IMG/VR virus record: IMGVR_UViG_2529292726_000024
Location: 1 to 10,801 of that record
Length of the DNA: 10,801 nucleotides
Direction: 5' to 3' (one strand)
DNA from: a virus
Lineage: Duplodnaviria > Heunggongvirae > Uroviricota > Caudoviricetes
The notes below the pieces were generated by a model. That model had not been told where the DNA came from. It did no database searches and saw only the letters and a program-made list of their open reading frames with translations. Numbering within the stretch: position 1 is the first letter of the stretch; each line of letters opens with the position of its first letter. The translations under genes and the position numbers were made by a program. This document shows positions 1-10,801 of the stretch, piece after piece.

Positions 1-223
1 GTAGCATCTCCAGCAGAGTTGTTGGTGTCAGAGCCGGCCTCTCTTTCAACAGAGGAACAAGCATGCTGTCCCACACAGCTTCCAGAGGATCTTTGCGTGT
101 GCGCCAGTGCCGAACACTGTTTTTTGCCCACTCTCCTTTTTCGATCCGACGACCAGAACGGACTGAGATACCAGCCTTCATGGCCGAGATATGCTGAGTT
201 ATACCTTTCTTACGCTGAGTCAT
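1..223 (-). CDS. hypothetical protein, N-terminal fragment (ORF continues beyond window start)
   Basis: Minus-strand ATG at 223-221 opens a frame (MTQRKKGITQHISAMKAGISVRSGRRIEKGEW...) that stays open to base 1; in-frame TAA upstream at 295-293 bounds the start. Absent from the ORF track because it has no stop in the window. Basic N-terminus, no clear Shine-Dalgarno. Function not recognised. Confidence 0.3.
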   Translation of the reverse strand, partial: MTQRKKGITQHISAMKAGISVRSGRRIEKGEWAKNSVRHWRTRKDPLEAVWDSMLVPLLKERPALTPTTLLEML

Positions 224-364
224 ATAGTAACTGACCTGAGAAGTATTGAGCGTCACGCCATTTCCTGTTGGATCATGTAAATGACACTCAGGTTACAAAA
301 CCGGCCAGAATAATCGGCGCCAGGCGGACTGAGTTATTGTCGTCTCATACTCCACGCTTATTTT

Positions 365-1705
365 TTAGGTAACGTCTAAGATTCGCTCAATGAAGCGCAT
401 TTGTTCGAGGTTTTGTTTAACGCGAATGCTGATCCCTCCCTGCTGGTTACGTGAACCAGCAAAGTAGAGACGAGCCTCTCCTTTCGCTTCTTCTTCTTCG
501 GTTTTGTTGATCGTTATTACCAGGTCAGCAATACGTACTTTTTCGATGTTGTCGGCAGCGTGCATCATTGTGGCAACTTCTGACGCGCCACCTTCACGGT
601 TTGTCTGCGATGCCGTGATCCCAGCAACGTTATGCTTGTCATAAAGAGCACGTAAATCGGTGTAGATACTACGAATGTTGGCGCGATCATCACGAAGGTC
701 ATAACTGGCACGCATCAAATCTGCGTAGTCGACAACAACCATGTCAGGCACCATGCCGTTGGCTTTCATGCTGTTAAGCACACGGTCCAGATCTGCCGGT
801 GACATACTTCCTGACGGACGCTCAACAACCCACAAACTACCAATACCCTTCGTAGCTCCCAACTCTGCCAACTTGCGATGAACTTCATCGCGCCGTTCCA
901 CCAACTTGGACATTTCCGTCTCCGACAATCTTGCATCAAAACGGTCGGATAAAATGGTGGTGTGAACCTCCAGCGAGAGATACAGAACATTGTAGCCAGC
1001 AAGTGTTGCGTTTATGGAAAACTCACCCATTGCGGTCGATTTACCGGATTTAGCGAACCCCATGAAGAGCACCATTTCGCGCTTTGCCCAGCCTTTTTGG
1101 TACAGCACCCTATCGAGAAGAGGGAGTCCAGTTGTAATACTGTTTGGTACATACTCCTCTGAAGCCTCATATTCACGCGCTTTCAATCGCTCACTTGCGG
1201 AGGTGTAGTAGTCATAGATTCCGGTCGCTTCGTTCGATCCAATCTGCTGAACCTTGGCCATGATTGCCATCGCCCCCTGAAAGTCGCCTTTCTCTTTCAG
1301 TTCAGCAGCCTTAATCAGAGCATCATCAAACGCTACACTTTTTGCGAAGGTTGATACCTGGTCAACCATGTACGAGGTATCGGACAATTTTTCTGCAAGA
1401 ATGCGCTTAAACGCAGCAACAACATCGGCGAATAGTTCCTCACGGATAGTCTTATCGCGTTTCGCACGCTTAAGCATATCCAGAATTGCAGATGAAGAGG
1501 GCGCGCTCTTGTACATACGGTAATAGCCCGAAACCATATTAACCAATATGGCATTGGCCGCATTGGCAAATTGGCTAGGCACAACCAGATCTCCCGCACG
1601 AGTAAGAAACTCGTGATCACGACAAAAATATGCCGTCAGTCTGTTCTGGAAATCTTCATCAAACTCTTCGGACAGCCCGCGTCCTGTATGGCAAAGTTCG
1701 GTCAT
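365..1705 (-). CDS. DnaB-family (SF4, RecA-fold) replicative DNA helicase
   Basis: 446-aa ORF; Walker A GFAKSGKST; DnaB-like motifs VVVDYADLM (Walker B/H2) and ITASQTNRE (H3); SD AAGGAA 5 nt upstream of ATG at 1705-1703. Family assignment from motifs seen in the translation. Confidence 0.82.
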   Translation of the reverse strand: MTELCHTGRGLSEEFDEDFQNRLTAYFCRDHEFLTRAGDLVVPSQFANAANAILVNMVSGYYRMYKSAPSSSAILDMLKRAKRDKTIREELFADVVAAFKRILAEKLSDTSYMVDQVSTFAKSVAFDDALIKAAELKEKGDFQGAMAIMAKVQQIGSNEATGIYDYYTSASERLKAREYEASEEYVPNSITTGLPLLDRVLYQKGWAKREMVLFMGFAKSGKSTAMGEFSINATLAGYNVLYLSLEVHTTILSDRFDARLSETEMSKLVERRDEVHRKLAELGATKGIGSLWVVERPSGSMSPADLDRVLNSMKANGMVPDMVVVDYADLMRASYDLRDDRANIRSIYTDLRALYDKHNVAGITASQTNREGGASEVATMMHAADNIEKVRIADLVITINKTEEEEAKGEARLYFAGSRNQQGGISIRVKQNLEQMRFIERILDVT

Positions 1706-1748
1706 GTGCTTTCCTTTGTTTTTTAAACAAATTGTTTTCTAGTATTAG

Positions 1749-2489
1749 TTAATTAGATAGGGGATCAATAAACCGCCGTGCTTCTTCCAGTTCTTCTGGA
1801 AAGTGGGCGTAAATAAGGCGCTCTGGAACGATTTCCATTAGCCAGATAGCGGAGAAAATTGCGCGTATGCGCTTGCTGCGAGGGATGGTGCGCAAACGCT
1901 CCAGAATCCACTCAAAATAGCTTTCCTGAATCGGGTTGAACTGCATGTCTCCCATATGCTTAAAGCTAACCAGAGAGTCATCCAGACGGGTTGTTGCGCG
2001 TCTGGCTAATTTCTCTTCAAATATCTCAATCAGTTCTGGCTGCCATAAATGCTGTGGGCGCGGCAGCTTGTCCCACAGCCGTCGTGCAGCTGCGGAAAGA
2101 ACGGTGGAGATAAAGTAGTCGTATGAGCAGCAATAGCGATCCGCAAACTGGCGTGCTTTCCATAGCGACGTTTTATTGGCAGTCGACAACTCCTGATAAG
2201 GCAGACGTTTTAACCCGGTGGTGAACGGAGCTGTTTCAAAGTGTTCGCGACCGTGCGTCAGCATGATATTTGAGTACTGACGTTTGTATGCCTCCGTAAA
2301 AAGACAGGTGGCCATGAGAGGATGCATGTCGCGGTAATCAAACCACTTCGTCTCGAAGAGTTCAGCCTCGTCTTTACAGCGCGACAAACCAATGTTTTCA
2401 GCGACCCACTTGTCCATAACAGCGGTATTCCACTCTGTCATGAAGTCGTACTGGTCGTTGTCGATGGTATCGAAAAAGATTTGGCTCAT
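1749..2489 (-). CDS. hypothetical protein, immediately upstream of the helicase gene (possible replication initiator or helicase loader by position only)
   Basis: Long ORF, 43-nt gap to helicase start, same strand. First ATG at 2489-2487 has SD AGGTGA 5 nt upstream; the track start at 2498 is a GTG. Aromatic-rich, no motif recognised. Confidence 0.6.
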   Translation of the reverse strand: MSQIFFDTIDNDQYDFMTEWNTAVMDKWVAENIGLSRCKDEAELFETKWFDYRDMHPLMATCLFTEAYKRQYSNIMLTHGREHFETAPFTTGLKRLPYQELSTANKTSLWKARQFADRYCCSYDYFISTVLSAAARRLWDKLPRPQHLWQPELIEIFEEKLARRATTRLDDSLVSFKHMGDMQFNPIQESYFEWILERLRTIPRSKRIRAIFSAIWLMEIVPERLIYAHFPEELEEARRFIDPLSN

Positions 2490-2498
2490 GTGGCTCAC

Positions 2499-2591
2499 CT
2501 GGTGGGTAGTTACTTACTTATCACAATGAGCGGATGATAGCGACTGGTGGCAGTTTTTGGAAGTGAAAACGGAAGGGAGTTGTTCTGGTGG
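2499..2591. repeat. three direct CTGGTGG heptamer repeats in the divergent control region (candidate iterons/operators)
   Basis: CTGGTGG at 2499-2505, 2544-2550 and 2585-2591 (spacing 45 and 41 bp); the first overlaps the SD of the 246-aa gene on the opposite strand. None is preceded by G, so none is a canonical Chi octamer. Confidence 0.4.
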
Positions 2592-2714
2592 TGTCTTTTA
2601 AAAGACCTGCTTCCGTATATATTTAATAAGTTACTTATTATTTATATACAGAAACAGGCTCCTAATGGATACCAAGAACAACATAATTTGACTCCAACCC
2701 CAGATGCTATGTCA

Positions 2715-2748
2715 TTGACAGATTTATCAAGGGAGATCATGTTAGAAT
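2715..2748 (+). promoter_or_regulatory. candidate sigma70-type promoter for the 352-aa ORF
   Basis: TTGACA at 2715-2720 and extended -10-like TGtTAGAAT at 2740-2748; spacing 22 bp is longer than optimal, so this is weak evidence. Confidence 0.25.
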
Positions 2749-2778
2749 CAGTGTTTTAGCCTCGTGGATATTGTCACC

Positions 2779-3837
2779 ATGCGCATGAATAGACTTCCAG
2801 GATATGGCCTTCCCGAACTGGCTTTTTGGCCTCAGCCTAAATATGAACGGAATAAATGGTCGATGTTCTGTCTGAAACTCCGTAATGATGGAACCCTTGC
2901 TTGGTATCGGCGATATGTTGATCGTGGTATGCCAAACCACGCTTTTGATGACGACTACGATAACTATCCTGAAGCAAGAAAAGCGGCATTAGAGCTGAAT
3001 AAAAACGTGAGCTTTGACATTGAAAAACTTCCTCTATCTATGTTTCAAAAGAAGTCATTGCGTTTGAAAGTTGACAAAGCACTCAAAGCCAAATCACGTC
3101 TCATGGATGAAGAGCATATAATGCTCAACGAAGCAATTAAGGCACACGCCAACGATCCGCGAGTGACATTAAATGAGTTAATAATTAACCCAGATTACGA
3201 AACTTTGCGTCAACCCCTTTTTGACGTGCTAAGCGAGATGCCTTACTTACATTTTGTTTTTCTTCCCAAATTCCAAGTTTCACTTCAACTCGTTGCTCCT
3301 AACACTTGGGAATGTTCATATAACAACAAAGCTAAGACAGCGAAGATCTGCTACCAAGAACGCATAGCCAGAGGTTTTGGTTTATCAGGTGCTGCACATT
3401 GGGGAAAAACAAAAGCGACTATTCGCTCAATGCTTCTGCCGCGTGCTAACCGGTTACTGCAACTCGCCAGCGTAAAAAGAATGCTGGATGAAGCTCTCAG
3501 GAATGGGCAAAAGGTACTGGTTGTTGGCAACTTTGTTTTCTGGTTTGAGGACAAAAATCAGGTAGGTTGGAGTGTTAAAGTTGCTAGCGAAAGCGAAACC
3601 ACCTCAAGAGGCAATACGCTCTGGAAAGAAGGAACTATCATTTCAAAAAATCACGGTCGAATTGTCGTGCTGCCGTATACAAAAGAAAACGGTAAACATG
3701 TAAAAGGTTATACCAAGAATGCCCCTAACGACGGCAACGCAATTCCGAGACATAAGGATGAGTATGTCGAGTTGCCCTTTGAAATTTTGGATGGTGACTT
3801 GATGTTCAGTCTGTTCGGTGAGCTTAACTACGAATAG
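2779..3837 (+). CDS. hypothetical protein (352 aa from ATG 2779; 357 aa if the GTG at 2764 is used), orphan accessory gene of unknown function
   Basis: Uninterrupted ORF on the strand opposite to both flanking modules; terminator-like hairpin downstream; AT-richer than neighbours by hand count (3001-3060 about 32% GC versus about 45% for 1381-1440 in the helicase). No Walker, HTH, TM or nuclease motif recognised. Start codon uncertain; no strong SD. Confidence 0.6.
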   Translation: MRMNRLPGYGLPELAFWPQPKYERNKWSMFCLKLRNDGTLAWYRRYVDRGMPNHAFDDDYDNYPEARKAALELNKNVSFDIEKLPLSMFQKKSLRLKVDKALKAKSRLMDEEHIMLNEAIKAHANDPRVTLNELIINPDYETLRQPLFDVLSEMPYLHFVFLPKFQVSLQLVAPNTWECSYNNKAKTAKICYQERIARGFGLSGAAHWGKTKATIRSMLLPRANRLLQLASVKRMLDEALRNGQKVLVVGNFVFWFEDKNQVGWSVKVASESETTSRGNTLWKEGTIISKNHGRIVVLPYTKENGKHVKGYTKNAPNDGNAIPRHKDEYVELPFEILDGDLMFSLFGELNYE

Positions 3838-3854
3838 CTTTCATAGAACGAAAT

Positions 3855-3892
3855 ATTTCTAAGGCTGTCCAATGCAGACCAGCCTTAGAGAT
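3855..3892. terminator. bidirectional terminator-like hairpin between convergent genes
   Basis: Stem 3855-3867 pairs with 3880-3892 (core CTAAGGCTG / CAGCCTTAG, 9 perfect bp, extendable to 13 with one wobble), 12-nt loop; T-rich flank on both strands. Lies between the stop at 3835-3837 (+) and the stop at 3900-3898 (-). Confidence 0.45.
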
Positions 3893-3897
3893 TTATA

Positions 3898-4257
3898 TCA
3901 ACCTTTCTTCATTAACTCGCGTTTAATTTCATCGGTACGCATCGTGACATCGGCAGCGGTGATCGCCTCATTCAATTTCACGATGTCCTCGATTTCCTGC
4001 GGTGACTTCTCTGCCAGATGGAAAATGGCTGCTCGAATCACGTCAGAACGAGTGAACTTCTCGAAGCGAGGGATGAACTTCATCATCTCCAGCAGTTCGA
4101 AGTATTCGTCCTCCAGTGACATTGTGCGGCTTTTAATTTTCTCTTTGCCACGAGTCGGGCGTCCCTGTGGTCTGACTGGTTGGCGCAAAGGAGTTGTGTT
4201 CTTAGCCGGTGCATCAGGCTCTTTGCGCTTTGCTAGGTCACCCATTTTCATGGACAT
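3898..4257 (-). CDS. small partition-locus partner protein (ParG/ParB-like centromere-binding protein candidate)
   Basis: 119-aa ORF whose ATG (4257-4255) overlaps the ParA stop (4259-4257) as TAATG; basic, Pro-rich N-terminal tail and short C-terminal domain, typical of small partner proteins of ParF-type ATPases. Assignment is by context, not motif. Confidence 0.5.
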   Translation of the reverse strand: MSMKMGDLAKRKEPDAPAKNTTPLRQPVRPQGRPTRGKEKIKSRTMSLEDEYFELLEMMKFIPRFEKFTRSDVIRAAIFHLAEKSPQEIEDIVKLNEAITAADVTMRTDEIKRELMKKG

Positions 4258-4925
4258 TATTCTTCTTCCTCCAGACTCAACAGATAATCTACAAATTCTT
4301 CAAACTCGGCTTCCGCCTTTTTGTCGCGCTCGCTACCGGTCATTTCAAAGATAGAACGACCAGACTCTTCCGCATCATCATAGACGTTGCGGTTATATAG
4401 ATTGACTGGCGCAGACTCGATTCCAAACGTCTCAACAATCTCTTTAGCCGCCAGAATGCGAGACACTTGTGATGGCAAAGCCGGGCACTGGTTCATGACC
4501 GCGCGGACCTTCACTTTATCGTTTACATTGCGAACATTGTCGATAATAGGATCGATGTCACGTAAAGATTTCAAATCACGACGCTTAGGACGCAGCGGGA
4601 TAATGATAACGTCAGCCATCAGCATCGCTTGTCGCTGAATTTCGGAGTCGAAGCCACCAGCATCTACCACTACAAACTCAGCTCTACCCTGAAGCGATTT
4701 TAGGTGCTTAATGATGTCATCCTGAACGTATGCAAAAGGAATCAGCTCAAGGTCTTCGTTCTGTCGACGGTCTTCACACCAGCTCGTTGTCGTGCGCTGA
4801 ATATCTATATCGGTAATATAAACCTTCTTCTTCTTTTTGACTTTCAGGCAAACGGCAATTTGCTGGGCAACGGTGGATTTGCCAGGCCCGCCCTTTGTGC
4901 CGCCAACCACAAAGATCTTGGTCAT
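4257..4925 (-). CDS. ParA/ParF-family partition ATPase (deviant Walker A)
   Basis: 222 aa; deviant Walker A GGTKGGPGKST near the N-terminus; acidic C-terminus; small size typical of type Ib ParA. Confidence 0.8.
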   Translation of the reverse strand: MTKIFVVGGTKGGPGKSTVAQQIAVCLKVKKKKKVYITDIDIQRTTTSWCEDRRQNEDLELIPFAYVQDDIIKHLKSLQGRAEFVVVDAGGFDSEIQRQAMLMADVIIIPLRPKRRDLKSLRDIDPIIDNVRNVNDKVKVRAVMNQCPALPSQVSRILAAKEIVETFGIESAPVNLYNRNVYDDAEESGRSIFEMTGSERDKKAEAEFEEFVDYLLSLEEEE

Positions 4926-4960
4926 TGGAGAGTTCCCTTTGCGTATATAATTATCGTCTG

Positions 4961-4973
4961 AAACAACTTGTTT
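4961..4973. promoter_or_regulatory. palindrome upstream of parA-like gene (candidate operator/centromere element)
   Basis: AAACAA-c-TTGTTT at 4961-4973, about 36 bp upstream of the parA ATG. Additional inverted repeat GTACGG-N7-CCGTAC at 5105-5123 in the same intergenic region. Confidence 0.25.
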
Positions 4974-5128
4974 TCTTATATGTGATATAGCCTAAATGCC
5001 TACGGCTGCGGTGTAAAGGTTAAATGGTAGGTTGTGATTAACAATTGGCAAACATAGCTTGTATTTGTCTGTTGAAAAAAGTAACAATGACCTCTATATT
5101 ACAAGTACGGTGATATGCCGTACACAAT

Positions 5129-5188
5129 TTGATAATGCACACGTAATGGGCTATAGCCTTTTAAAGTAATTTTTGAGTCGAAAACTCA
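5129..5188 (+). promoter_or_regulatory. candidate promoter and operator of the toxin-antitoxin operon
   Basis: TTGATA (5129-5134), 17-bp spacer, TATAGC (5152-5157); downstream inverted repeat TGAGT-cgaaa-ACTCA at 5174-5188, positioned like an autoregulatory operator. Confidence 0.3.
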
Positions 5189-5243
5189 GTTTGAACAGAG
5201 GAGATTGATGGCCTTCCTACATCACGGCCATCAGGAGGAATAC

Positions 5244-5513
5244 ATGTCAGCACTAAAAAAGCAGCGCATCGATTTGAGATTAACCGATGACGATAAAAGC
5301 ATCATCGAGGAAGCTGCCGCAATGTCTAACCAGAGCATTACTCAGTTTATGGTTAGCAGTGCATCTGAACGTGCCGTGAAAGTTATAGAGCAACACCGTA
5401 GACTAGTTCTGAATGAAGAATCCTGGAATCTGGTTATGGACGCTATAAGCAATCCTCCGGCACCGAACGACAAGCTGAAACGAGCTGCTGATCGTCTGAA
5501 AAGCATGGAGTAG
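5244..5513 (+). CDS. type II antitoxin, DUF1778 (RHH) family, AtaR/TacA/KacA-like
   Basis: MSALKKQRIDLRLTDDDKS... matches the conserved N-terminus of DUF1778 antitoxins as I remember them. SD AGGAGG 5 nt upstream of ATG 5244; an alternative in-frame ATG at 5208 also has an SD. Stop is 7 nt before the toxin start. Confidence 0.8.
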   Translation: MSALKKQRIDLRLTDDDKSIIEEAAAMSNQSITQFMVSSASERAVKVIEQHRRLVLNEESWNLVMDAISNPPAPNDKLKRAADRLKSME

Positions 5514-5520
5514 TTTACTC

Positions 5521-6042
5521 GTGGATAATATAAAGATAGAAATTTTCTCTGGAGAGAAAGATTATGATTTGAATGGTTTTGATTGCGGTGAAGAATCACT
5601 AAATGCCTTTTTAACCAACCACTTAAAAAGGCAGCATGAGGGAAAAATTCTTCGCGCTTATGTGCTTTGCACGAAAGAAGGCAGACCAAAAGTGTTAGGG
5701 TATTACACTTTGTCAGGTAGCTGCTTTGAAAAGGAGTCCTTACCTTCAAGAAGCCAGCAAAAGAAGGTACCTTATCGGAATGTTCCAAGTGTTACTTTGG
5801 GTAGGCTGGCTTTGGACAAGTCCCTTCAAGGTCAAGGATTTGGCTCAATGCTTGTAACACATGCAATGCGCGTTGTGTACAATGCATCTCTTGCTGTAGG
5901 CATTCATGGACTTTTCGTTGAGGCGTTAAATGACAAAGCCAAGGCGTTTTATAAAAGTTTAGACTTTATCCAGCTGGTTGGTAACAACGAGCGTTCTTTG
6001 TTCTATCCTACAAAATCTATCGAAAAATTGTTCGAAGAATAA
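5521..6042 (+). CDS. GNAT-family N-acetyltransferase toxin (AtaT/TacT/ItaT-like, aminoacyl-tRNA acetylating)
   Basis: 173 aa, GTG start; acetyl-CoA-binding motif LQGQGFGSML; conserved FDCGEE and VGIHGLFVEALN segments remembered from AtaT-family toxins; directly downstream of the DUF1778 antitoxin. Confidence 0.8.
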   Translation: MDNIKIEIFSGEKDYDLNGFDCGEESLNAFLTNHLKRQHEGKILRAYVLCTKEGRPKVLGYYTLSGSCFEKESLPSRSQQKKVPYRNVPSVTLGRLALDKSLQGQGFGSMLVTHAMRVVYNASLAVGIHGLFVEALNDKAKAFYKSLDFIQLVGNNERSLFYPTKSIEKLFEE

Positions 6043-6047
6043 TGTAC

Positions 6048-6065
6048 TCCCCTCAAGTGAGGGGA
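6048..6065 (-). terminator. terminator-like hairpin between the converging TA operon and the minus-strand membrane cassette
   Basis: TCCCCTCA (6048-6055) pairs with TGAGGGGA (6058-6065); on the minus strand it follows the stop at 6076-6074 and precedes a U-rich stretch; the plus-strand flank is not U-rich. Confidence 0.35.
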
Positions 6066-6073
6066 ACTTCGCA

Positions 6074-6289
6074 TCACCAACCGCAAACTCTCTCTCCCAT
6101 CGTATTGTGAAAAAGGATTTGGCGTTCGGTTTCTTCGGTCATCACATCATTATTGCTGATATAGATAGGCCCAGCTCCATCGCAGAACAATACGCTGGCG
6201 GTTTGTGGTTTAATGACGCACCCACTTATCATACAACTCACGATGAACGGCAGAAGCATCTTTCTGACGTATTTTATTGCTCGTCTCAT
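6074..6289 (-). CDS. candidate o-spanin-like outer-membrane lipoprotein, overlapping the 3-prime end of the upstream gene in the +1 frame
   Basis: Lipoprotein signal MRRAIKYVRKMLLPFIVSCMISGC with lipobox ISGC (alternative start at ATG 6259). Overlaps the 6210-6461 gene by 80 nt in another frame, the classic overlapped Rz/Rz1 arrangement. Mature part is not proline-rich, so the assignment is tentative. Confidence 0.4.
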   Translation of the reverse strand: MRRAIKYVRKMLLPFIVSCMISGCVIKPQTASVLFCDGAGPIYISNNDVMTEETERQILFHNTMGERVCGW

Positions 6290-6461
6290 TCACCACTTCC
6301 ACTGTGCTTTGAAGTCGTTTTCTGTCTTCCTGTTTTGCCTTCTCTTCCATTGCTCGTCGCGCCGCATTCCCGCCCATCGTGTAAGCGCCGACAAGAACGA
6401 AAAGAACGGCAGCCAGCGTAATCAAAGCAACTTTTAGCTTTGTCATCAGGCTGCCTAGCAT
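6210..6461 (-). CDS. candidate i-spanin-like protein (N-terminal TM helix, charged periplasmic helix)
   Basis: ATG at 6461-6459 with SD AAGGGA upstream; MLGSLMTKLKVALITLAAVLFVLVGAYT is a single N-terminal TM, followed by a charged helical region (AARRAMEEKAKQEDRKRLQ...). Short (83 aa) for an Rz-like protein. Confidence 0.42.
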   Translation of the reverse strand: MLGSLMTKLKVALITLAAVLFVLVGAYTMGGNAARRAMEEKAKQEDRKRLQSTVEVVNETSNKIRQKDASAVHRELYDKWVRH

Positions 6462-6462
6462 A

Positions 6463-7155
6463 TTAGACCATCCCTTTCTGGTGTTTTCTTCCCTGCGACC
6501 AGGCAATGAATCCTGCCACAACAATAGTGGCAATACCGAAGATGATGCGTACTGTATCCCCGCTAGAGATATGACCTTGTGCTTTATCCATAGCAGCGGA
6601 AACCTGCGGCATAACATCGGCCAGCTGCGCCAGACCAATACCTGCTGTAACAGTTGCGCCTGCGGTTTCTTTAGTTACAGGAACAGCCTTCACGGTTTTC
6701 ACCGGCTTAACAACGCCAGCTCGACGCAGACCTTCCTCAATAACTTCTACCGCATACCAGGTGTTCAGCGTTTTTAGCGGGCCTCGGCCATTCTCGTGGC
6801 GAATGATTGCCTCAACCAAAGGTCGAAGGATGTCGTAATCATGCAGATCGATGATCATGTCTGCGGTTACACCAACGGCTTTAGACACCTCATTAATGTA
6901 GGCGTCAGTATTGTTTTCATTCGGCGGTGCCCAACGTTCAATAACTTCACGAATGGTATCGATACTTGAGCCGTCTTTTGCGCGACGTTTGTCGTGGTAG
7001 GTAATTAGAGTCACCGCCAGCGCACGAATCCCCCAAACAGGGTCTTTAAACGTGCAAAAGCGCGGTTCGTCTGGATTCGCAACCAGACCTTGCCACGGTG
7101 ATCCTTTATCAAGATTACCGGGGTTATTATTACGAATGCCTCTCGGAGTCTTCAT
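6463..7155 (-). CDS. tail-anchored membrane protein (C-terminal TM); endolysin-like only by its position in the cassette, unverified
   Basis: 230 aa from ATG 7155 (SD AGGAG 7 nt upstream; the track start at 7182 is a GTG). N-terminal soluble domain with RNNNPGNL, C-terminal TM IIFGIATIVVAGFIAW. No catalytic motif of a known muralytic family recognised. Confidence 0.4.
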   Translation of the reverse strand: MKTPRGIRNNNPGNLDKGSPWQGLVANPDEPRFCTFKDPVWGIRALAVTLITYHDKRRAKDGSSIDTIREVIERWAPPNENNTDAYINEVSKAVGVTADMIIDLHDYDILRPLVEAIIRHENGRGPLKTLNTWYAVEVIEEGLRRAGVVKPVKTVKAVPVTKETAGATVTAGIGLAQLADVMPQVSAAMDKAQGHISSGDTVRIIFGIATIVVAGFIAWSQGRKHQKGMV

Positions 7156-7168
7156 CCTTGATCTCCTG

Positions 7169-7492
7169 TTATTGCAGTCCACTTTTTACGCCATACGCGG
7201 CTAACCCCAAAAGCAGTGCGGTAATAATGAACGACGTTATTTTAGAAACAATGCCGCCAAAGAACCCACTTGAGATGGAATCTAACCGGTTAAGGAGTTT
7301 GTCCAGATTGGAGTGTTGAATACTATGTTGCGCCGGGGTCATATCACCAAAGTAGGTTTTCAGCTGATCATTGACCTCCTGGCCAATTTCTTCACGTAGC
7401 TCTTTACCTAATTTGCCAACAACCTCCCGAGCAACGATCGCGGCAATACGCTCAACTTGCTCTGTTGTAACGCCCGCCATCTCGTTCGACAT
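7169..7492 (-). CDS. small tail-anchored membrane protein (holin-like by position, unverified)
   Basis: ATG at 7492 has a strong SD GGAGG 5 nt upstream (alternative ATG at 7504 lacks one). About 85-aa charged N-terminal region then a single C-terminal TM ITSFIITALLLGLAAYGV. Stop is 13 nt before the next gene. Confidence 0.4.
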   Translation of the reverse strand: MSNEMAGVTTEQVERIAAIVAREVVGKLGKELREEIGQEVNDQLKTYFGDMTPAQHSIQHSNLDKLLNRLDSISSGFFGGIVSKITSFIITALLLGLAAYGVKSGLQ

Positions 7493-7573
7493 GTTTTCCT
7501 CCATGAAAAGTCAAATCGGGATGGCGGATTTATATCACATTTCACCCTTTTGTTGTAGGTGTGTACTTACCTA

Positions 7574-7807
7574 TCATTCAGCATTGCAACCGATTGATGA
7601 GAAAGCACCTACTCCAACCCATCGCCAGTTATAGATGCTACCCGCTTTGTATAAGGTATAGTCGTTCACTTTTTTAACAGCATATATGGGTATGACTGTC
7701 TCCTGTCCACCAATGATAGCTTCACCATAACATATAGGTGTCGGCAATTTCTGGCAGCCAGTAAGAGAGAGAACAACAGCTATTGTTAGAAATAATCTTT
7801 TCATCAT
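7574..7807 (-). CDS. small lipoprotein, 77 aa (candidate Cor-like superinfection-exclusion lipoprotein)
   Basis: Signal peptide MMKRLFLTIAVVLSLTGC with lipobox LTGC; starts 4 nt after the stop of the 202-aa gene; size and position after the tail-fibre genes recall Cor-type lipoproteins of lambdoid/N15-like phages, but sequence similarity is not verified. Confidence 0.55.
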   Translation of the reverse strand: MMKRLFLTIAVVLSLTGCQKLPTPICYGEAIIGGQETVIPIYAVKKVNDYTLYKAGSIYNWRWVGVGAFSSIGCNAE

Positions 7808-7814
7808 TTACTCA

Positions 7815-8423
7815 TCAGTTATACAGATTTCTATTTATTACCGGTACTCTGCCATTTACGCTAAAACTATGGCCGCCATTAAGTTGGTTTACGAATATCG
7901 AGCTAACAGTATTTCCATATGCCGCATATCCATAAACCATTGTCATGGCTCCGCCCGGTACTGGAACAGCGAACACATTCGCATATGTTGGGATTATCGC
8001 TGGAGGGTAATCAAAAACATGCCCTCCAGAGCTGTTCCACTCCGTATTATTAAGAAAGGTAAATGAAAGTGGGATATTTGCCGTATTATAGATTTCCTCC
8101 CCTTGTGCATTGAAAAAACTCATGCCCCAAGTTTCTTTTTTGGCTATACCTTTCGAAAATACGTATATCGTGGCACTAGAGTCGCTACCCTGACCTCCGA
8201 AACTGTAAATCACCTGGTTGTTACGCACTATTCTGTTGGCTATTAATGAAACAGCTTTCGAATAGGCAACAAAAATAATCGGTGAACGATCTGGAGATAT
8301 TTTGGTGTTAAACTCTGTTCCGCCGGACAAAGAAACAACCTGCTTTCTCTGAAAAACGATAGGAGACAAAGAAGGAGACATCCAGACCTTCCCGTCAGAT
8401 CGATATATCTTGCTTCCGTACAT
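7815..8423 (-). CDS. hypothetical protein, 202 aa, Gly/Ser/Asn/Tyr-rich, probably beta-rich
   Basis: ATG at 8423-8421 overlaps the stop of the upstream gene as TAATG (translational coupling). No TM segment or catalytic motif seen. Confidence 0.55.
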   Translation of the reverse strand: MYGSKIYRSDGKVWMSPSLSPIVFQRKQVVSLSGGTEFNTKISPDRSPIIFVAYSKAVSLIANRIVRNNQVIYSFGGQGSDSSATIYVFSKGIAKKETWGMSFFNAQGEEIYNTANIPLSFTFLNNTEWNSSGGHVFDYPPAIIPTYANVFAVPVPGGAMTMVYGYAAYGNTVSSIFVNQLNGGHSFSVNGRVPVINRNLYN

Positions 8424-8677
8424 TATTTTTGAAAAACCAATATGTTTAAATTACCACTAGCTCCAGACCACGAAATGGTATTTCCAGAAACCGTAAGACT
8501 TGTGTACTTTCCATTGGTTACGTCCATTATGTAATAGTCGATTCCCAATCCCGCCTCAACCTCATATGTTCTACTTCCTGAACCAGAGGGAGTAAAATAA
8601 TCGAGGTAATAAACAGGGGCCAACGCATTGACCATCTCCTGTCTTGATGGCGACCAAACCTGTGCACCATAGCTCAT
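8423..8677 (-). CDS. hypothetical protein, 84 aa
   Basis: ATG at 8677 with SD AAGGA 7 nt upstream; first gene after the tail-fibre stop; coupled to the 202-aa gene. No motif recognised. Confidence 0.5.
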   Translation of the reverse strand: MSYGAQVWSPSRQEMVNALAPVYYLDYFTPSGSGSRTYEVEAGLGIDYYIMDVTNGKYTSLTVSGNTISWSGASGNLNILVFQK

Positions 8678-8702
8678 AAATATATCCTTATACTTTTAAG
8701 CA

Positions 8703-8725
8703 GGGGCTGGTTTAGCTCCAGCCCC
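8703..8725. other. GC-rich hairpin between the tail-fibre gene and the downstream cassette
   Basis: GGGGCTGG (8703-8710) pairs with CCAGCCCC (8718-8725), 7-nt loop. U-rich flank only on the plus strand, so it is not a convincing terminator for the minus-strand operon; possibly an RNA-stability or processing element. Confidence 0.3.
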
Positions 8726-8737
8726 GATTGAAGTTGT

Positions 8738-10534
8738 TTATTCTTTAGGTGAATTTAACTTCGTTTCAAGCTCCTCAACCCTTTTGGTCAATTGCTGAAT
8801 ATGATGAATGAGTGGTACAACCAAACGCTCATACATCACTCCTTCAGCGACCATACCATTTGAGGAAATACCTTCTGGAGAATCATTATTTGTTGGTTCA
8901 CGCCAATGGACATATTGCGGGGCAATCTCACCAACCTCTTCAGCAATAAGGCCGTAATACCCCCAATCCTTTCGGTCACCTCGACAAATTGAACGATACC
9001 AAACAGGTCTTAATGACAAAAGTTCATCAGCATATCGATCTTGTAATGTTTCAATATCCTTTTTATAGCGCCTTGAAGACGTTGAACGCCAAACTGTATT
9101 GATACCTGGGTTTGGATCAATGTACATATTGGCACCGCTAGTAGTTGTGCCAATATCCCATATAGCAAACCCTCCACTACCGCCTGATTTGACAACCAGT
9201 GTTTCAGCAACAATATCCAGGTTGCCACTATAGCCTGTCAGTGATGATCTGCTTGCATAGGAACTTAGAAGGTTTGCTACCTCTGTTTTCGTGTAAGCAT
9301 TAAGGTTAGCCGCAGTCAAAGTTATATCGGCAGAGCCATCAAACGCCACACCAGCAATTTTCCTTGCTGTCTGCAATTTTGTGGCGGTTGCGGCATTACC
9401 AGTAGTGTTCTGATTACCAGTGGCATTCACACCAGGAATGGAGTCCCTTGATGTATATACCTGCGCCCACGCTGACCATGCCGCAACTGTGTAATCTCTT
9501 CGGGAGCGAATGAAAACCGGCGCATGTGCACCGCTCGTACCACTCCAGCCAATAAGCAACTCGCCCTCACCAGCAGCACTCGCACCTTTCATGTGCAATA
9601 CGTTGCCATACGTGGTCGGGTAGCTATTGTTGTACACCTCATACATTTGAATGCCAGCAGTGCCTTGAGTAGAGCCGCTTAACGCCGTAACTCGGCCACG
9701 AGATACCAATGTATTAATATTGATATCGCCTGAACCATCAAACTTAACACCATTGATGTTTCTCGCTGTTTGCAACTTCGTAGCTGTTGAAGCATTACCG
9801 TTCAAACTACCATTTACGCCACCAGTCACATTTAGTCCATTACCAATTGATACAGCACCGCTGGTATTATTAATTGTAATAGGTCGCAAACCGTTCCATG
9901 AACCTAATGTGTCTCCTGATGCTGTTAGCAGGAAATATGTGTTCGCCCCATCATTACGGATAAAGAACCCAAAGTTACCGTAAGCAATGCGGAAACCATT
10001 TGCATATTTTGAAACGATCTCACCAGAAGACGTTAACCCTCCAGATAATGTGCCACCTGAAAGCGGTAATGCTCCTACATCAGAAGCTGTTGGTTTGTTT
10101 CTAGTGTTATACGCTCTGCGCCATCCAGGTGAATAACTTGAGCCATTAGACACATAGATAAACTCCGCATTAGTGAGTGCACCAGAGACATTTGTCGTAG
10201 TGGCCGTTGTTATTCGAATGGTGTAATTGTTGGTATTATTGCTGAATACTTCTATCACAGCACCCGCCAGTGGAATAATGCCACAACCAGTTTCACTGTC
10301 TGGTATGGATGCACTATTCGCATACGCCCATGCACAACGAGCGATCCATGCTTTCGTACTGAATGCCCCGTTATTTTGCAACAAAGTAACTAACTGGGCT
10401 GTCGTTATTGCCCCTCCATTACTTCCTGTAGTTAACCAACCAGTAGGAGATGCCGGGCAACCTATATTTGCTGGCGACAAGGCAATATTTGCCGAGCCGT
10501 CAAACGACACCCCATTGATAGTACGCGCAGTCTG
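8738..10534 (-). pseudogene. tail fibre protein with C-terminal S74 intramolecular-chaperone domain, 5-prime truncated by IS2 insertion
   Basis: Three copies of the tail-fibre repeat LQTAR-INGV-FDGS; C-terminal domain with SSRRYKKDI (S74 auto-cleavage consensus) and ...VPLIHHIQQLTKRVEELETKL. The reading frame runs into the IS2 left end at 10535, so the first ~45 codons of the 643-aa track ORF derive from IS2. Confidence 0.8.
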
Positions 10535-10801
10535 TAGACTGCCCCCCTGAATCTCCAGACAACCAGTATCACTTAAATAAGTGATAGTCTTAATACTAGT
10601 TTTTAGACTAGTCATTGGAGAACAGATGATTGATGTCTTAGGGCCGGAGAAACGCAGACGGCGTACCACACAGGAAAAGATCGCAATTGTTCAGCAGAGC
10701 TTTGAACCGGGGATGACGGTCTCCCTCGTTGCCCGGCAACATGGTGTAGCAGCCAGCCAGTTATTTCTCTGGCGTAAGCAATACCAGGAAGGAAGTCTTA
10801 C
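10535..10801 (+). mobile_element. IS2 (IS3 family), left end, partial (runs off window)
   Basis: Sequence from TAGACTG at 10535 through the insC start matches the IS2 left end as I remember it (near-identical, one or two mismatches in the terminal repeat). Boundary good to about 3 bp. Confidence 0.85.
10626..10801 (+). CDS. insC: IS2 transposase OrfA (InsC), N-terminal part
   Basis: [58 protein letters not shown] is the recognised InsC N-terminus; SD GGAG upstream; ORF continues beyond the window. Confidence 0.85.

Follow-up and report, generated by a model that had tools for sequence, protein, structure and literature searches.

PD-T4-3 and PD-T7-5 are anti-phage defence systems that emerged from a functional selection in E. 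coli (PMC9519451), and a survey found both in SSU5 phage-plasmids of E. coli and Shigella (bioRxiv 10.1101/2025.09.12.675607). Of eight P4-hotspot loci of unknown genes that were picked at random, six protected against phages (PMC13586616). Here we analyse a 10,801-nucleotide stretch of Caudoviricetes DNA (the window: positions 1 to 10,801 of IMG/VR record IMGVR_UViG_2529292726_000024), and in particular one gene of it, the target gene, which encodes a protein of 352 amino acids (aa). It is firmly established that this gene is accessory, moves as a single-gene unit with its own signals and lies in a slot of the sort that mobile elements use for defence genes. We read it as a self-contained unit ("moron") in a cargo hotspot between the replication-side genes and parAB of a phage-plasmid. 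Its most likely role, to which we give a probability of roughly 0.6, would be that of a new stand-alone defence protein directed against phages or other mobile elements. The initial annotation of the window had described the gene as orphan accessory cargo of a phage-plasmid and a candidate for defence or anti-defence; the variable slot and the patchy occurrence of the gene among relatives bear this description out.

At 99-100% identity, the window aligns with non-mobilizable, IncFIB-typed E. coli plasmids of ~110 kb that have phage tail, DNA ligase and helicase genes aboard. The matches at lower identity are records of SSU5-type phages from Klebsiella and Escherichia. From the plasmid and phage matches, together with the gene content of the window, it follows that the element carrying the window is an SSU5/pHCM2-type phage-plasmid. 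E. coli, Klebsiella, Salmonella Typhi and Shigella sonnei commonly harbour phage-plasmids of this type. The slot and its immediate borders comprise the following features:

1749-2498, minus strand: phrog_2500, a conserved gene of unknown function, left neighbour of the target open reading frame (ORF)
2606-2658, no strand: AT-rich 53-bp near-perfect palindrome at the left edge of the slot, with 26-nt arms that are 85% complementary
~2660-3895, plus strand: exchangeable cargo cassette of ~1.24 kb (promoter region, one gene, terminator), with borders taken from blastn
2740-2748, plus strand: extended -10-like promoter element TGTTAGAAT, identified from conservation upstream of homologues
2779-3837, plus strand: target coding sequence, 352 aa, uncharacterised family PHROG 22329 (E 1.4e-257)
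3855-3892, no strand: terminator-like hairpin (repeat I17) between the convergent target and parB-like genes, belonging to the cassette
3898-4257, minus strand: small parB-like gene, phrog_5111, right neighbour of the target ORF

We surveyed the slot in 75 IMG/VR viral contigs that hold both flanking genes. Its contents include:

PD-T4-3 (GIY-YIG protein): 25 of 75 contigs
target gene: 17 of 75 contigs (13 alone, 4 with a DUF2971 gene)
DUF2971 / PDC-S31 alone: 10 of 75 contigs
pair of 250-aa and 140-aa genes, function unknown: about 8 of 75 contigs
KAP NTPase / PDC-S49: 6 of 75 contigs
PD-T7-5: 4 of 75 contigs
empty: 4 of 75 contigs

The occupants were recognised with PADLOC hidden Markov models (PD-T4-3, E 1.6e-23; PD-T7-5, E 1.5e-139; PDC-S31, E 4.7e-41; PDC-S49, E 5.4e-22). 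Complete E. coli genomes carry the target gene in 37 of 5,426 cases, every copy being on a plasmid, and it is also carried by pHCM2-type plasmids of Salmonella and by S. sonnei plasmids of the same type. The initial annotation had proposed a check of locus variability; with 18 slot types among the 75 contigs, and the gene present at the locus in 138 and absent from 595 of 733 plasmid records sharing the flanks, conservation with synteny does not extend to all relatives. Modular and variable in content, the slot has validated and candidate defence genes as alternative occupants. Conserved bounds, variable content and validated defence occupants are the marks of a cargo hotspot, and the target gene lies within them. 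The literature searched holds no description of the phage-plasmid slot as a hotspot or of the protein family, and searches by accession numbers and PHROG identifier returned nothing on the family. Klebsiella relatives often carry the gene as well (cluster P0004, 167 members).

Several occupants of the slot match nothing in PADLOC or Pfam, namely the pair of ~250 and 140 aa, which occurs in several divergent versions, and a gene of 225 aa (L017:1422-2589; L131:6362-7406; L148:5831-6505). Because they share the hotspot slot, they are further defence candidates.

The position of the gene between helicase/replication genes and parAB would also suit a role in maintenance of the element or in competition with its relatives, through replication control, accessory partition, incompatibility or exclusion of related plasmids, or post-segregational killing. 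A homologue on a Pantoea plasmid near par and stbA, and the basic character of the protein (isoelectric point, pI, 9.3), which could allow it to bind DNA, agree with such a role. We nevertheless regard it as very improbable. Most relatives whose flanks are identical lack the gene, and the slot can be empty; the gene is therefore dispensable for replication and partition. There are no iterons or direct repeats around the gene and no antitoxin-type partner gene, and a plasmid function would make no sense for the many homologues that reside in integrated prophages or in islands of the chromosome. Two specific candidates were rejected. A replication initiator (Rep) was considered for the position next to parAB and for the IncFIB typing, which applies to all six related plasmid records examined; it was ruled out by the 595 absences, the empty slots and the lack of iteron-like repeats. 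A type II toxin-antitoxin module was discarded, as the cassette has no second ORF on the sense strand and no neighbour is conserved across 60 loci.

The borders of the cassette are sharp. In blastn alignments, four relatives with other cargo are 97-99% identical in the flanks up to 2658/2659 and resume at 3896-3900, and homology to other-cargo and empty-slot relatives stops at 2658-2661, the end of the palindrome. On the right, the border coincides with the stop codon of the parB-like gene; in empty-slot relatives only ~30 bp separate the palindrome from this codon. Judged by these alignments, the 53-bp palindrome is conserved backbone and not part of the cassette. It lies 108 bp upstream of the phrog_2500 gene and is kept in all relatives, those with empty slots included, and every cargo cassette starts directly 3' of it. 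It could act as operator or promoter of the leftward operon, play a part in replication or mark a boundary of recombination.

Inside the cassette, the initial annotation had noted a single long ORF on the strand opposite to both neighbours, and such an ORF is present: the target gene is on the plus strand, phrog_2500 and the parB-like gene on the minus strand. The interval then given, 2715-3892, does contain this ORF but represents the ORF with its flanks rather than the gene itself. The ORF spans 2764-3837 if read from a GTG, and the start common to homologues is the ATG at 2779, with the stop codon at 3835-3837. All homologues start with M-R, and a GGA resembling a Shine-Dalgarno sequence lies 10-13 nt 5' of this ATG. 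No second ORF was found inside the cassette except antisense ones.

Morons, as known from the lambdoid phage literature, are autonomous units of promoter, gene and terminator, often of deviant composition. The signals of the target cassette were compared among homologues. The sequence TGnTAAAAT occurs ~30-38 nt before the ATG in most homologues checked, despite unrelated surrounding DNA; their sources are phage-plasmids, an Enterobacter chromosome and Pantoea, and a Salmonella prophage copy matches less well. A strict scan for the two consensus hexamers found no canonical -35/-10 pair within 2400-4000. Of the promoter that had been expected for the gene, the extended -10-like element thus stands, and the canonical pair does not. 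Downstream, the predicted hairpin is present, with arms at 3855-3867 and 3880-3892 that are 92% complementary and energies of -18.5 kcal/mol on the plus strand and -19.1 on the minus strand. Its stem is preserved in homologues through compensatory changes (CTG/CAG, CGG/CCG, TAG/CTA).

The GC content of the target ORF is 42.7% (41% at third codon positions), that of the flanking genes 47-49% (50-57% at third positions) and that of the whole window 45.3%. The gene is indeed AT-richer than its flanks, as had been proposed, by a smaller margin than the hand count gave: its lower bound of 32% GC was not reproduced. With a predicted promoter and terminator of its own, a single gene and deviant GC content, the cassette has the make-up of a moron.

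The pairwise ratio of nonsynonymous to synonymous substitution rates (dN/dS) between the target gene and seven homologues is 0.07-0.10, and dN is 2-3 times higher over residues 1-200 than over residues 201-352. The first search retrieved at least 346 homologues, nearly all of 346-357 aa and all named "hypothetical protein". Because of the low dN/dS and these 346 homologues of near-constant length, the target is a real gene under strong purifying selection.

Inactivated copies occur. An insertion of IS1 splits the gene in the E. coli plasmid pCTX (NZ_CP047004.1; L166:580-1876), and in one Salmonella lineage the gene is present as two ORFs of 205 and 118 aa (P0302, P0303) on 11 contigs. Such copies fit a dispensable and possibly costly gene.

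The best 120 homologues are all at least 48% identical to the target and come from Enterobacterales, Vibrio, Shewanella, Aeromonas, Pseudomonas and other genera. When each species was represented by a single genome, a scan yielded 61 loci and added Janthinobacterium, Herbaspirillum, Caulobacter, Brevundimonas, Xanthomonas and Stenotrophomonas. The surroundings of the homologues are diverse:

Serratia P2-like prophage: homologue (74% identical) between gpA and the portal gene, beside an AAA_15/AAA_21 ATPase
Salmonella and Citrobacter lambdoid prophages: homologue at the integrase-proximal end
Pseudomonas prophage: homologue in a moron position among tail genes, beside SMEK_N and SLATT_4
Shewanella prophage: homologue beside AbiTii and a NucS-like gene
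Aeromonas: homologue in a small integrative element
Pantoea plasmids: homologue present, in one case near the par and stbA genes mentioned above
Pseudomonas island: homologue with Gabija, AbiJ, Bub and P4-type beta/cII genes
Vibrio islands: homologue with Gabija and HEPN-Toprim, or with a CAP12-type TIR protein, a NERD-helicase and an SMC-like ATPase

The position next to the portal gene corresponds to a described P2 hotspot (PMC9519451, PMC9122126). Among 136 representative neighbours within 4 kb, GajA, AriA, AbiLi, LmuB, Old, AAA_15/21/23, UvrD helicases and integrases recur. The most frequent neighbour family is found at 12 of 60 loci, and these 12 share housekeeping neighbours, including a P-type ATPase, and look like one chromosomal site. 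Since no neighbour family exceeds 12 of 60 loci, the gene has no obligate partner. Homologues in unrelated genomes adjoin defence genes or lie in known hotspots, and the gene moves by itself, bringing its own signals, among plasmids, the hotspots of prophages and defence islands.

These neighbourhoods bear on whether the gene could be lysogenic-conversion cargo of another kind, unrelated to phages, such as a factor in host fitness or virulence, or a toxic gene that is selfish and brings no benefit. The Salmonella prophage copy adjoins an effector gene of the SspH type (LRR/NEL), and the inactivated copies suggest cost or dispensability. On the whole we consider this explanation improbable, as the family extends across marine, soil and enteric bacteria, which argues against host-specific virulence, and its recurring neighbours are defence genes, not virulence genes. 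The protein also has no hydrophobic segment, with no search having been aimed at secretion signals.

The target protein is soluble and basic (40.8 kDa; maximum Kyte-Doolittle value of 0.98 over 19-residue windows). It has no family match in Pfam-A or NCBIfam, no defence family match in PADLOC-DB v2.0.0 up to E 1, and no meaningful match among PDB sequences in single-sequence and profile searches. Ten distant relatives compared with Pfam gave nothing except one sub-threshold match to DUF6613, and a second, word-indexed search with the C-terminal profile recovered nothing beyond fragments of this family. A match to a housekeeping phage or plasmid protein, which would have spoken against the initial annotation, was sought in Pfam, NCBIfam, PADLOC, PDB sequences and by fold search, and none was found. 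None of the new systems named in the P4 study fits the protein (PMC13586616). Three regions of the protein can be distinguished:

2779-3453, plus strand: N-terminal two-thirds, aa 1-225, two predicted modules, faster-evolving
3490-3834, plus strand: C-terminal all-beta domain, aa 238-352, the most conserved part
3622-3750, plus strand: core motif W-x-EG-x-I-x-S-x-N-x-G-x-x-I-V-x-P-x-x-K-x-x-G-x-x-V-x-G-[YH]-T-[KR]-N-x-P-x-x-G-x-A-x-P-R, aa 282-324

In a full-length AlphaFold2 model, residues 1-220 are predicted with confidence (predicted local distance difference test, pLDDT, ~90), and each N-terminal module consists of a three-stranded sheet and a helix followed by a long helix. The C-terminal domain, modelled alone with distant relatives in the alignment, is all-beta with a pLDDT of 77. 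Neither of the two models has meaningful structural neighbours in PDB or BFVD. An exhaustive profile search recovered distant relatives, some of which align from residue ~86 onwards and others over the core motif only, which in them stands behind unrelated N-termini such as zinc ribbons, charged helices and coiled coils. The wider family keeps W, P, S, N, G, T and R invariant and conserves no acidic residue and no histidine. This lack of conserved acidic and histidine residues points to binding rather than catalysis and argues against a metal-dependent nuclease. The protein thus probably acts by binding or scaffolding.

A tentative lead in the initial annotation towards a PD-(D/E)xK nuclease, based on the segment FVFWFEDK (aa 251-258), did not hold up, as the D and K positions vary and the segment is a predicted beta-hairpin in the all-beta domain. 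Of its residues only F254, W255 and E257 are invariant in the close family, and this E is often replaced in the wider family. D258 and K259 vary, no invariant upstream D exists, and no restriction-endonuclease-like alpha/beta core was found, and the nuclease was rejected on these grounds.

Other candidate similarities were set aside. In PDB profile searches, NKG2-D (E 1.4), an ATP synthase gamma subunit and fibritin are chance matches, and the designed protein Mitsuba-1 (E 1.9e-4 over 36 residues), a short beta-trefoil repeat match from the single-sequence search, was treated as such. Protein P0247 (542 aa), with five matches to the N-terminal hairpin, is repetitive and beta-propeller-like, with YILKLKSDGSLDWYKTYGG repeats, and is likewise a chance match. 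An internal duplication of the two N-terminal modules was hinted at by the model and is unsupported by sequence (hhalign probability 6.7%). A likeness of the first module to WGR was dropped, since neither the target protein nor its distant relatives gave Pfam support for it.

The close family shares a conserved acidic tail, ELPFE-x-L-x-x-DLM-x-x-LFGEL-x-YE (aa 331-352; 3769-3834), which includes a predicted short helix. The tail is missing from more distant relatives and has the look of a tip for protein interaction; that it resembles clamp-binding or SSB-tail peptides is no more than an impression of ours.

If the protein is a defence factor, its mode of action might be as follows. A resident plasmid prophage would express the protein and so shield its host, and with it the element itself, against rival phages. 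Trigger recognition or oligomerisation would fall to the N-terminal modules, which are basic, evolve faster and have long helices. The conserved C-terminal beta-domain, as effector or interaction module, would bind and block some conserved component of the phage or host in a non-catalytic manner, and infection would be aborted or excluded. We regard N-terminal recognition or oligomerisation and C-terminal non-catalytic blocking, taken together as one mechanism, as doubtful.

A stoichiometric binder would equally lack conserved catalytic residues, and the faster-evolving N-terminal part would fit an arms-race interface, so that the protein might instead be anti-defence or counter-defence cargo, which binds and neutralises a host immune system or a component of a rival element and thereby aids establishment or spread of the phage-plasmid. 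Phage-plasmids are known to carry anti-defence genes, and the target gene is carried by many kinds of mobile element. In the Vibrio and Pseudomonas islands, however, the homologues have defence neighbours and no recognisable phage genes in the 8-10 kb flanks examined, and the positions in P2-like and lambdoid prophages are typical of genes expressed by the lysogen, not of early lytic blocks. A protein of 352 aa is also large in comparison with known anti-defence proteins, which we counted against this explanation. We judge it unlikely, and defence is favoured over it on context only.

Several points weigh against the gene being a defence gene. The function is read from context, and the hotspot argument is one of guilt by association, since hotspots hold anti-defence genes and other cargo too. 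The enrichment of defence genes among neighbours is qualitative, being made without a matched random control. The PADLOC, PDB and BFVD searches found no known defence protein that is similar in sequence or fold. The C-terminal domain is poorly predicted in the full-length model and of moderate confidence in the domain-only model, so the missing fold match is weak evidence for a new fold. Finally, DefenseFinder recorded no defence system in pHCM2-like or S. sonnei pWPMR2-like phage-plasmids (bioRxiv 10.1101/2025.09.12.675607). As such plasmids carry the gene, the blank shows only that the gene is unrecognised.

Elsewhere in the window, the following genes complete the surroundings of the slot:

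365-1705, minus strand: DnaB-like helicase gene
4257-4925, minus strand: parA, a ParA/MipZ ATPase gene
5205-6042, plus strand: TacA/GNAT toxin-antitoxin pair on the far side of parAB

The target gene is therefore placed as first proposed, between replication and partition modules, with the helicase side to its left and the parB-like gene and parA to its right. The region encoding the TacA-like antitoxin and the GNAT (TacT-like) toxin has the appearance of a second variable slot: two unrelated genes of 258 and 132 aa, without Pfam or PADLOC match, take its position in Escherichia phage PhiR41_1 (L014:6287-7462). On the minus strand, 8738-10669 holds a tail-fibre-like ORF of 643 aa, with repeats rich in glycine and serine, whose C-terminal segment looks like an intramolecular chaperone or endosialidase-type domain.

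The gene is widespread, clinically placed and a well-supported candidate. If it does serve defence, a single-gene system without recognisable domain would join the catalogue of bacterial immunity, a widespread module annotated by no database would gain a function, and a cargo hotspot next to parAB would be defined in SSU5/pHCM2 phage-plasmids. The target protein may be the founding member of an unrecognised single-protein defence family with no solved fold relative, its C-terminal beta-module being a new effector or interaction domain reused behind other N-termini, and the gene being the occupant of the defence slot in pHCM2-type S. Typhi and S. sonnei phage-plasmids that were scored as defence-free; we hold this to be possible, at somewhat less than even odds. 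The slot itself is a source of more candidates, such as the pair of 250 and 140 aa and the 225-aa gene. The question is relevant to phage therapy and to the persistence of "cryptic" plasmids in clinical lineages. Once Klebsiella pneumoniae Kp1604 had been cured of the SSU5-like plasmid p2 (CP085480), three lytic phages plated 10- to 100-fold better and transformation efficiency rose; this is an effect of the whole plasmid, for which the authors suggest a restriction-modification system (PMC8969562).

Compared with known systems, the target protein shares with PD-(D/E)xK nucleases only a hydrophobic stretch followed by E-D-K. The gop-beta-cII region of P4 offers a parallel in position: in seven Pseudomonas loci a family member stands directly upstream of beta and a convergent cII, in the place of gop. 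In these loci (L007, L008 and L009, ~10001-12933), a gap of 268 bp separates the family member from the P4-type beta gene, and no hidden gop-like ORF was found between the homologue and beta in Pseudomonas. Unlike P4, the copy in the window and most homologues have no beta or cII genes nearby. Gop itself has 133 aa as against 352 aa, and an analogy by homology was rejected at an hhalign probability of 0.2%.

PD-T4-3 and PD-T7-5 resemble the target gene in occupying the same SSU5-type slot as alternative cassettes, in their similar size and in standing alone. They differ from it in sequence, with BLASTP E values of 4 or worse, and PD-T4-3 has a recognisable nuclease domain, whereas the target protein has no recognisable domain or conserved catalytic residues. 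The cassette is like morons in its own conserved -10 element and terminator hairpin, its lower GC content, its opposite orientation and its insertion between conserved genes, "moron" being a name for a genetic form and not for a function. This genetic form, as moron and as hotspot cargo, is of an already known kind; the protein family is uncharacterised and without detectable relatives of known function. The slot, for its part, resembles the P2 tin/old and P4 hotspots in having conserved core bounds and many unrelated occupants, mostly for defence (PMC9122126, PMC9519451, PMC13586616), and differs from them in its setting, which is a phage-plasmid, beside parAB.

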